A DNA stretch of 64,000 bases from assembly GCA_964474655.1 (NCBI GenBank), contig CAYYTU010000002.1, positions 64,095-128,094 on the forward strand. Direction: 5' to 3'. Position 1 is the stretch's first letter. Each line of letters starts with the position of its first letter. Of the stretch, positions 30,088 through 30,936 are shown piece after piece. The position numbers and the translations under genes are program-made. Source of the DNA: an uncultured Anaerolineales bacterium (GTDB taxonomy: Bacteria; Chloroflexota; Anaerolineae; B4-G1). The notes under the pieces were generated by a model. That model ran no database searches, was not told the origin of the DNA, and was given only the letters and a program-made list of their open reading frames with translations.

Positions 30088-30936
30088 ATGACCTCACAAG
30101 AATGGTTCCTGTATACGCTACGCTGCGCTGATGATACCTTCTATACCGGTATCACCACCGACCTCGCGCGTCGCGTGGCGGAGCACAACGCCGGACGAGG
30201 CGCCCGCTACACCACCGGTCGGCGCCCGGTCAAGCTGATCGGAGCCTGGCGCTTCCCCGACCGCAGCGCGGCCCAAAGCGCCGAGTTCGCTTTCAAGAAG
30301 CTCTCTCAAGCACGGAAGCTTTCAACGGTGGCCCGCGAACGTCCCTTCCGGAACGCCCCATTCCACCACGATAAGCAAGTACCCGAGGAGATGCGGGGCA
30401 CCATCCGCTTCTGCCCCCGCTGCGGGGGTCTGCTGCACGAGCGCAGAGAGCAGGCCCCTGCAAACGAGAGCCGAACCCGCCTCGTCTGCGCCGGCTGCGG
30501 GCGGATCCACTACCGCAACGCCAAGCCTTGCGCCGGCGCCCTGATCGTGCGCGACGGGAAAGTGTTGCTGATCAAACGCGCCATCCAGCCCTTTCGCGGT
30601 CACTGGGATATTCCCGGCGGCTTCCTGGAGGTAGACGAACATCCAGAGGACGGCGTCATCCGAGAAGTGGAGGAGGAAACCGGGCTGACCATCCGCCCAA
30701 CCGGGCTGTTTGGCTTCTATATGGACCGCTACGGCGAAGAGGGCGTCCATTGCCTCAACATTTACTTCACAGCTTGCGTCATCGGCGGTCAGGAGCACAC
30801 CAACGATGAAGTAACCGAGATAGCCTGGTTTGGCCCCGACGAATTGCCCGAGCGAATCGCCTTCAGCCATGCCCACGACGTCCTGAAAACCTGGGCCCAG
30901 TCGATGGAAGAGGCCTCATCAGCGAGCACGACGTGA
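30088..30936 (+). CDS. GIY-YIG nuclease-domain / C4 zinc-ribbon / NUDIX hydrolase fusion protein (NudC-like architecture).
   Basis: N-terminal block [36 protein letters not shown] is a GIY-YIG motif. Zinc ribbon is CPRCGG...CAGCG. NUDIX box is [24 protein letters not shown]. The ATG at 30088 is in-frame within tool ORF 29902..30936. Confidence 0.75.
   Translation: [282 protein letters not shown]

Follow-up and report, generated by a model that had tools for sequence, protein, structure and literature searches.

Two widespread bacterial subfamilies, the UPF0213/YhbQ group of GIY-YIG nucleases and the 3CNG-like group of zinc-ribbon Nudix hydrolases, have solved structures and no accepted biochemical function. 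Within the Slx1 family, Escherichia coli YhbQ and Bacillus subtilis YazA represent the prokaryotic branch (PMC7017083). A zinc motif followed by a Nudix catalytic domain is also found in E. coli NudC and mammalian Nudt12. In NudC, F160 stacks on the adenine of NAD together with Y124 from the partner subunit, and the motif SQPWPFPxS forms the nicotinamide pocket (Q192, W194 and S199 in E. coli) (PMC5034116); of these residues, Zhang et al. found Q192 and W194 to matter for NAD hydrolysis. Here we describe a gene in which the two subfamilies are joined in one polypeptide. It occupies positions 30088..30936 of the + strand in a 64,000-nucleotide stretch of contig CAYYTU010000002.1 from an uncultured Anaerolineales bacterium (Chloroflexota; assembly GCA_964474655.1), referred to below as the window. 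The fusion arose once and is chromosomal, with a gene context that varies, and it is made up of three modules whose active and zinc sites are conserved. It is a genuine, previously undiscussed combination of two known subfamilies, with sequences already deposited in public databases under generic names. We put the probability that both activities serve a single pathway, one that processes nucleic-acid damage or ends, at roughly 0.45.

Domain architecture and conserved residues

The assignment of the whole gene as a GIY-YIG/zinc-ribbon/Nudix fusion is based on the open reading frame and its translation, three Pfam domains above threshold, and at least 120 homologous clusters. Structurally, the 282-residue product begins with a GIY-YIG nuclease domain of the YhbQ/YazA/Slx1 (UPF0213) branch at residues 6 to 77 (30103..30318), which matches PF01541 with an E value of 1e-13 and 51.8 bits against a cutoff of 22.6. 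This is followed by a helix and a poorly conserved linker (residues 78 to 106; 30319..30405), and then by a C4 zinc ribbon at residues 107 to 142 (30406..30513; PF14803 Zn_ribbon_Nudix, E 3.2e-9, 37.0 bits against 25.6). The Nudix hydrolase domain spans residues 148 to 261 (30529..30870; PF00293, E 8.5e-23, 81.3 bits against 21.1). An initial annotation, made by reading the sequence, had predicted a UPF0213-like GIY-YIG domain at the N terminus, with a C4 zinc ribbon and a Nudix domain with an intact box behind it. The Pfam matches bear this out for all three domains, and UPF0213 structures are indeed the closest to the N-terminal one.

Conservation of individual residues was judged from an alignment of 34 homologues. 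The Nudix box, read directly from the sequence at G178..L200 (30619..30687), is intact, with G178-x5-E184-x7-R192-E193-x2-E196-E197-x-G199 matching the consensus GX5EX7REUXEEXGU. Within it G178, R192, E193, E196, E197, and G199 are invariant, E184 is nearly so, and L200 is invariant or nearly so. All four zinc ligands (C109, C112, C134, and C137) are invariant as well, and the ribbon aligns both with that of PDB 3CNG and with the zinc motif of NudC. In the GIY-YIG domain, the invariant residues are Y9, Y19, G21, R28, R29, H33, Y41, T42, E66, and K77, among which we take Y9, Y19, R28, R29, H33, and E66 to have catalytic roles by analogy with I-TevI, UvrC, and Hpy188I. Both active sites are conserved, which settles a doubt in the initial annotation that the catalytic residues of one or the other domain might be degenerate.

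Averaged over pairs of homologues, identity stands at 67% for the GIY-YIG domain, 63% for the Nudix domain, and 57% for the ribbon, and falls to 34% in the linker and 36% in the C-terminal tail. Because the two catalytic domains are so similar in this respect and so far above the linker, purifying selection appears to act on both enzymes to a comparable degree. The linker carries a PFxGAPF-like motif, and the same motif ends a stand-alone, 95-residue GIY-YIG protein from Anaerolineales (L036). An AlphaFold2 model of the protein has a mean predicted local distance difference test (pLDDT) score of 87.8, with each domain modeled confidently.

Occurrence and origin of the fusion

When 5.8 billion proteins were searched, the fusion architecture turned up in at least 120 sequence clusters at 50 to 78% identity; all of them carry PF01541 and PF00293, and most carry PF14803. 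The named carriers among these clusters are all metagenome-assembled genomes (MAGs) of Chloroflexota, Chloroflexi, or Anaerolineae. A scan of GTDB, with one genome per GTDB species, gave a similar picture in that full-length fusions among the matches listed come only from Anaerolineae, Anaerolineales, or Chloroflexota MAGs (L001-L006). The GTDB count is a lower bound, and the restriction to Anaerolineae-type Chloroflexota does not prove absence elsewhere. An exhaustive HMMER search of 1.84 billion 50%-identity cluster representatives contained exactly one representative of the fusion (P0056, E 1.8e-102). Ten of the HMMER matches that aligned in two stretches were scanned with Pfam; all are tandem duplications of Nudix, a ribbon being present in most, and a GIY-YIG domain is found in none of the ten. 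The initial annotation had proposed looking for the same fusion in other phyla, and none was seen among the GTDB matches listed or these ten Pfam-scanned proteins.

Tandem duplications have arisen repeatedly in the ribbon-Nudix family, giving proteins of about 270 to 350 residues (P0121, P0122, P0127, P0148, P0167, P0186, and P0248) that mostly repeat the ribbon-Nudix unit. Two other proteins, P0137 (658 residues) and P0199 (409 residues), carry a close ribbon-Nudix relative at the N terminus of a much longer chain.

It was initially feared that an assembly chimera or a frameshift had joined two separate genes. The reading frame is continuous, the junction between the halves is spanned by 121 homologous proteins, and an identical protein with identical neighbors was assembled independently from sequencing runs SRR7048227 and SRR7048219. 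Because of these independent assemblies and the many homologous clusters, an artefact is ruled out for practical purposes, and the chance that one underlies the gene is negligible.

A neighbor-joining tree of the Nudix parts gathers all 121 fusions in a single clade, with stand-alone ribbon-Nudix proteins as its sister group; P0137 is placed in this sister group. A single stand-alone protein, P0124, is nested within the fusion clade and may reflect secondary loss of the GIY-YIG domain. Both halves also exist on their own. Stand-alone ribbon-Nudix proteins of about 170 residues, 45 to 55% identical to the corresponding half of the fusion, occur in Anaerolineales, Verrucomicrobia, Actinobacteria, and others, while stand-alone GIY-YIG proteins of about 85 to 95 residues and 50 to 60% identity are found in many phyla. 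The simplest history is one fusion event in an ancestor of the Anaerolineae, by which a ribbon-Nudix protein lacking any N-terminal domain gained the nuclease. It had been suggested at first that the nuclease replaced an existing N-terminal domain; since the nearest relatives of the C-terminal half have no such domain, the GIY-YIG domain was probably added and not swapped in. A decayed copy of the fusion is present in an Anaerolineales MAG (L044:7953-8932), where the gene is frameshifted and the zinc cysteines, a Nudix-box Glu and Gly, and the Tyr of an ARYT motif have been lost. This copy is either a pseudogene or the product of a poor-quality assembly.

The Nudix half and its relation to NudC

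The Nudix half had been read as having the architecture of NudC, and this holds for the general plan only. A C4 zinc motif precedes the Nudix fold and the Nudix-box glutamates are conserved, as in E. coli NudC and Nudt12, and a direct alignment with E. coli NudC pairs F160 and Y124 with F179, which is invariant in the fusion family, and Y142, which is nearly invariant. The adenine-stacking Phe/Tyr pair of NudC is thereby kept. In contrast, the features that define the NudC family are missing. The NCBIfam equivalog model for NudC, NF001299, scores 52.3 bits against a cutoff of 158, and the score with PF09297, the ribbon model for NudC, is 16.4 bits against 24.8, the ribbon of the fusion being described by a different Pfam model. 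The Nudix-like N-terminal domain of NudC has no Pfam match in the protein, where residues 6 to 77 are instead GIY-YIG, and overall identity to E. coli NudC is 23%. Alignments with homologues and with E. coli NudC also place a family-specific motif, GFYxDRY (residues 209 to 215; 30712..30732), where NudC has SQPWPFPxS. Y211 and Y215 of this motif are invariant and G209 and F210 nearly so, and the Q, W, and P of the NudC motif are not conserved in the aligned region. Orthology to NudC was rejected on these three grounds, namely the NF001299 score, the PF09297 score, and the missing SQPWPFPxS; on sequence criteria, the Nudix half is NudC-like in plan and not a member of the NudC family.

The closest solved structure is PDB 3CNG, a Nudix hydrolase of Nitrosomonas europaea that combines PF14803 with PF00293 and is labeled "COG1051/YjhB-like". 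It is the best match by sequence (E 2.1e-21 over residues 104 to 273) and ranks first in Foldseek (E 2.4e-14). In second place among the structural matches comes E. coli NudC, followed by neighbors that include DR1025, Ap4A and Ap6A hydrolases, and MutT2. As in the fusion, the C4 ribbon of 3CNG lies directly before the Nudix fold, and the two share an HY(R/Q)N.K motif at the junction. The order of PF14803 and PF00293, both above their gathering scores, is in keeping with a 3CNG-type protein. Unlike the fusion, 3CNG and the stand-alone ribbon-Nudix proteins have no N-terminal nuclease.

These comparisons suggest that the module probably forms a ribbon-mediated dimer that binds a purine nucleotide, as NudC does. 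Because the adenine-stacking pair has been retained and the nicotinamide pocket has not, a preference for NAD(H) is unlikely, and NAD-RNA is likewise disfavored. A Tyr that is invariant and lies about 15 residues past the Nudix box may, along with the fold matches to Ap4A and Ap6A hydrolases, hint at an Np(n)N-type substrate, which we treat as a lead only.

The GIY-YIG half

The N-terminal domain matches the structures of two UPF0213 proteins, BH0048 (PDB 1zg2, E 2.9e-18) and EF2693 (PDB 1ywl, E 1.4e-15), and is 40% identical to E. coli YhbQ over 95 residues (E 4e-22). RefSeq gives YhbQ the product name "DNA damage response nuclease YhbQ". YhbQ, YazA, BH0048, and EF2693 all consist of the same compact domain of about 95 residues with the Tyr/Tyr/Arg/His/Glu set found in the fusion, but they are single-domain proteins. 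Eukaryotic Slx1 differs in another way, as it has a RING/PHD finger at its C terminus and depends on Slx4. The fusion protein has no Pfam match to a RING or PHD finger and does not resemble the eukaryotic type; a ribbon and a Nudix domain follow its nuclease instead.

Fusions of prokaryotic Slx1-like domains have been described before. A 2006 survey of the GIY-YIG superfamily reported fusions to a COG4123 methyltransferase, a TrmH-like methyltransferase, and an HsdR subunit, and does not mention a fusion to Nudix (PMC1564403). In the literature searched, we found no description of a GIY-YIG/Nudix fusion or of YhbQ biochemistry.

Proposed function and alternative explanations

We propose that a YhbQ/YazA/Slx1-type GIY-YIG nuclease of about 95 residues was joined, once, to the N terminus of a 3CNG-type zinc-ribbon Nudix hydrolase of about 170 residues, and that both activities would have been retained. 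The ribbon-Nudix module, probably dimeric through its ribbon, would hydrolyze a pyrophosphate bond in a substrate containing a purine nucleotide, and the GIY-YIG domain tethered to it would cleave a phosphodiester bond, either in the same nucleic acid or in a neighboring one. Processing of DNA damage is slightly favored over RNA turnover because of the kinship to YhbQ and Slx1. It is conceivable, although rather unlikely, that the protein is an "unblock-and-cut" enzyme, in which the ribbon-Nudix dimer would recognize an adenine nucleotide attached through a pyrophosphate to the 5' end of a nucleic acid or to a lesion, and would hydrolyze this adduct; the Nudix module would position the GIY-YIG domain to incise the same strand. 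Candidate targets would be RNA capped with Np(n)A or ADP-ribose, 5'-adenylated (App) DNA from abortive ligation, or ADP-ribosylated DNA. If true, this would be a previously undescribed coupling of pyrophosphohydrolysis to incision.

Several observations count against a shared pathway in nucleic-acid damage or end processing. The AlphaFold2 model has a predicted template modeling (pTM) score of 0.61, and the geometry between its domains is not confident. The substrate of 3CNG is listed as "Undetermined" in a review of the Nudix clan (PMC5389931), and so the closest structure gives no functional transfer. The neighbors of the fusion gene vary between relatives and offer no clue to a pathway, and the stand-alone genes are no more helpful: a Nudix gene adjoins 1 of 37 GIY-YIG loci, its product having no ribbon, and a GIY-YIG gene adjoins none of 36 ribbon-Nudix loci. 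Because stand-alone GIY-YIG and ribbon-Nudix genes are not neighbors in other phyla, a functional link between them would not be general. The superfamily survey raises a possible RNA role for the prokaryotic Slx1-like branch, and the target could be RNA because of the TrmH and COG4123 fusions reported there; Dunin-Horkawicz et al. also warn that GIY-YIG fusions can reflect domain mobility and not cooperation (PMC1564403).

The main competing explanation is that two independent housekeeping enzymes share one polypeptide for co-expression or stability, such as a YhbQ-like repair nuclease alongside a pyrophosphatase acting on the nucleotide pool or on ADP-ribose/ApnA, with no coupling of substrates. 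We regard this as quite plausible, though short of even odds. It fits well with stand-alone halves that are widespread and lie apart elsewhere, with a linker that is short and poorly conserved, and with a pTM score that indicates no fixed interface. The JGI annotation, ADP-ribose pyrophosphatase plus endonuclease, reads the same way, and DR1025, the Ap4A and Ap6A hydrolases, and MutT2 among the Nudix fold neighbors are small-molecule hydrolases. However, the fusion has been kept intact, with invariant active sites, throughout a clade whose members have diverged as far as about 50% identity, and the exceptions amount to the one candidate loss of the GIY-YIG domain (P0124) and the one decayed copy (L044). 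If the activities are independent, the protein would be an ordinary lineage-specific domain fusion.

Two further explanations were weighed. The initial annotation envisaged a NudC-type NAD-RNA decapping enzyme, its N-terminal domain replaced by an endonuclease, that would carry out coupled decap-and-cleave RNA turnover. Here the ribbon-plus-Nudix arrangement, the second rank of NudC among fold matches, the conserved F160/Y124 equivalents, and the fusions of prokaryotic Slx1-like domains to TrmH and COG4123 RNA enzymes (PMC1564403) are all consistent with the idea, but it has to contend with NudC equivalog and ribbon scores that are both below cutoff, the absence of SQPWPFPxS with its Q192 and W194, and closest relatives in which there was nothing to replace. 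The best-annotated relative of the nuclease, moreover, is a DNA-damage enzyme. Decap-and-cleave is speculation, and we consider it improbable. Alternatively, the gene may be a mobile or conflict element, either through homing-type insertion of a GIY-YIG domain into a Nudix gene or as an anti-phage defense effector. GIY-YIG domains are evolutionarily mobile (PMC1564403), and the Nudix domain matches the PADLOC candidate model PDC-S07 (E 4e-15). That match, however, covers only the generic Nudix fold (residues 149 to 255), with no full-length PADLOC match, and the fusion is absent from 50,697 phage records and 72,556 plasmid records, none of which covers 80% or more of the protein. A single origin within one bacterial class, ordinary metabolic genes as neighbors, and a GIY-YIG domain of the YhbQ housekeeping branch that is free of homing-endonuclease DNA-binding modules all argue in the same direction. 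A defense or mobile-element origin was rejected on the PADLOC, phage, and plasmid results, and its likelihood is very small.

Gene boundaries and neighborhood

The open reading frame runs from ATG 30088 to a TGA stop at 30934-30936. Upstream of this ATG the frame stays open to 29902, and the NCBI record of the protein (P0001, 302 residues) uses a TTG start within it, adding 20 residues (30028..30087, + strand). Because most homologues in the 34-member alignment begin at a Met aligned with ATG 30088, and because the 20-residue extension is not conserved, 30088 is likely to be the true start and the extension is probably not translated.

The gene upstream (29325..30035) encodes an uncharacterized protein of 236 residues, with an N-terminal hydrophobic segment, a Pro/Thr-rich stretch, and no Pfam match on record. 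A syntenic gene of 242 residues is present in the 78%-identical relative of the fusion. Downstream lie a gene for a ClC/TrkA_C channel (30933..32600, + strand) and then an Asparaginase_2 gene. The channel has 555 residues with a C-terminal TrkA_C domain in the window, and its counterpart in the closest relative has 423 residues and no TrkA_C match (L088:1830-3101). The TGA stop of the fusion gene overlaps the GTG start of the channel gene in the sequence GTGA (30933..30936). The initial annotation had placed this overlap at the start of the fusion gene and had taken it to mean that the two genes are co-expressed; it is the stop that overlaps, and the overlap carries no functional weight. In the 78%-identical relative the gene order is kept with an 84-base-pair (bp) gap before the ClC gene, while relatives at 56 to 58% identity have other neighbors (glycosyltransferases, an M24 peptidase, and DUF624). 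An operon logic with the channel was rejected, as neither the overlap nor the neighbors are conserved.

The neighbors of the 36 stand-alone Nudix and 37 GIY-YIG loci were clustered as well, and yielded only generic or lineage-synteny families (ABC ATPase, IleS, an EF-G-like protein, DksA/TraR, and thioredoxin), none of them recurrent in an informative way. The one adjacent pair comes from a Candidatus Magasanikbacteria genome (L042:6801-7547), in which an 83-residue GIY-YIG gene is followed after 31 bp by a 154-residue Nudix gene that lacks the zinc ribbon. The pair is a possible gene-neighbor echo of the fusion; by a rough estimate, one such case among 37 loci is about the level of chance. 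In two Chloroflexota genomes (L015 and L019, near position 8000), the stand-alone ribbon-Nudix gene adjoins genes for isoleucyl-tRNA synthetase and a DksA/TraR-type zinc-finger protein. IleS also lies within 1 to 3 kb of the stand-alone ribbon-Nudix gene in several Actinobacteria. These arrangements probably reflect lineage synteny.

Rfam detects no regulatory RNA near the fusion gene. Its only match in the window is a cobalamin riboswitch (RF00174) at 57135-57276 on the - strand, with 54.3 bits and an E value of 9.7e-11. Elsewhere on the - strand, by reading of the sequences, 25329-28625 holds an 819-residue histidine-kinase-like protein and then two single-domain, response-regulator-like open reading frames of 138 and 132 residues, and 28738-28998 holds an 86-residue open reading frame resembling an excisionase or MerR-type helix-turn-helix protein.

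Implications and comparison with other GIY-YIG fusions

A fusion that is stable across a whole class can be viewed as a "Rosetta stone", which suggests that the UPF0213/YhbQ and 3CNG-like subfamilies may share one pathway; a link between them is testable in this one protein. Should the coupling prove true, it would give a first functional handle on the bacterial Slx1-like nucleases and would make a pyrophosphohydrolase a new type of partner among GIY-YIG repair fusions. Such fusions have precedents in which the nuclease is likewise tethered to a second enzyme, namely a Cho-like GIY-YIG domain joined to an epsilon 3' exonuclease homologue in Mycobacteria, and a COG1833 GIY-YIG domain with endonuclease III in Methanococcales (PMC1564403). 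Both involve other branches of the superfamily and other partners, neither of them a pyrophosphohydrolase. In each, the second enzyme prepares or follows the incision, and it is this same logic that we propose for the GIY-YIG/Nudix fusion.

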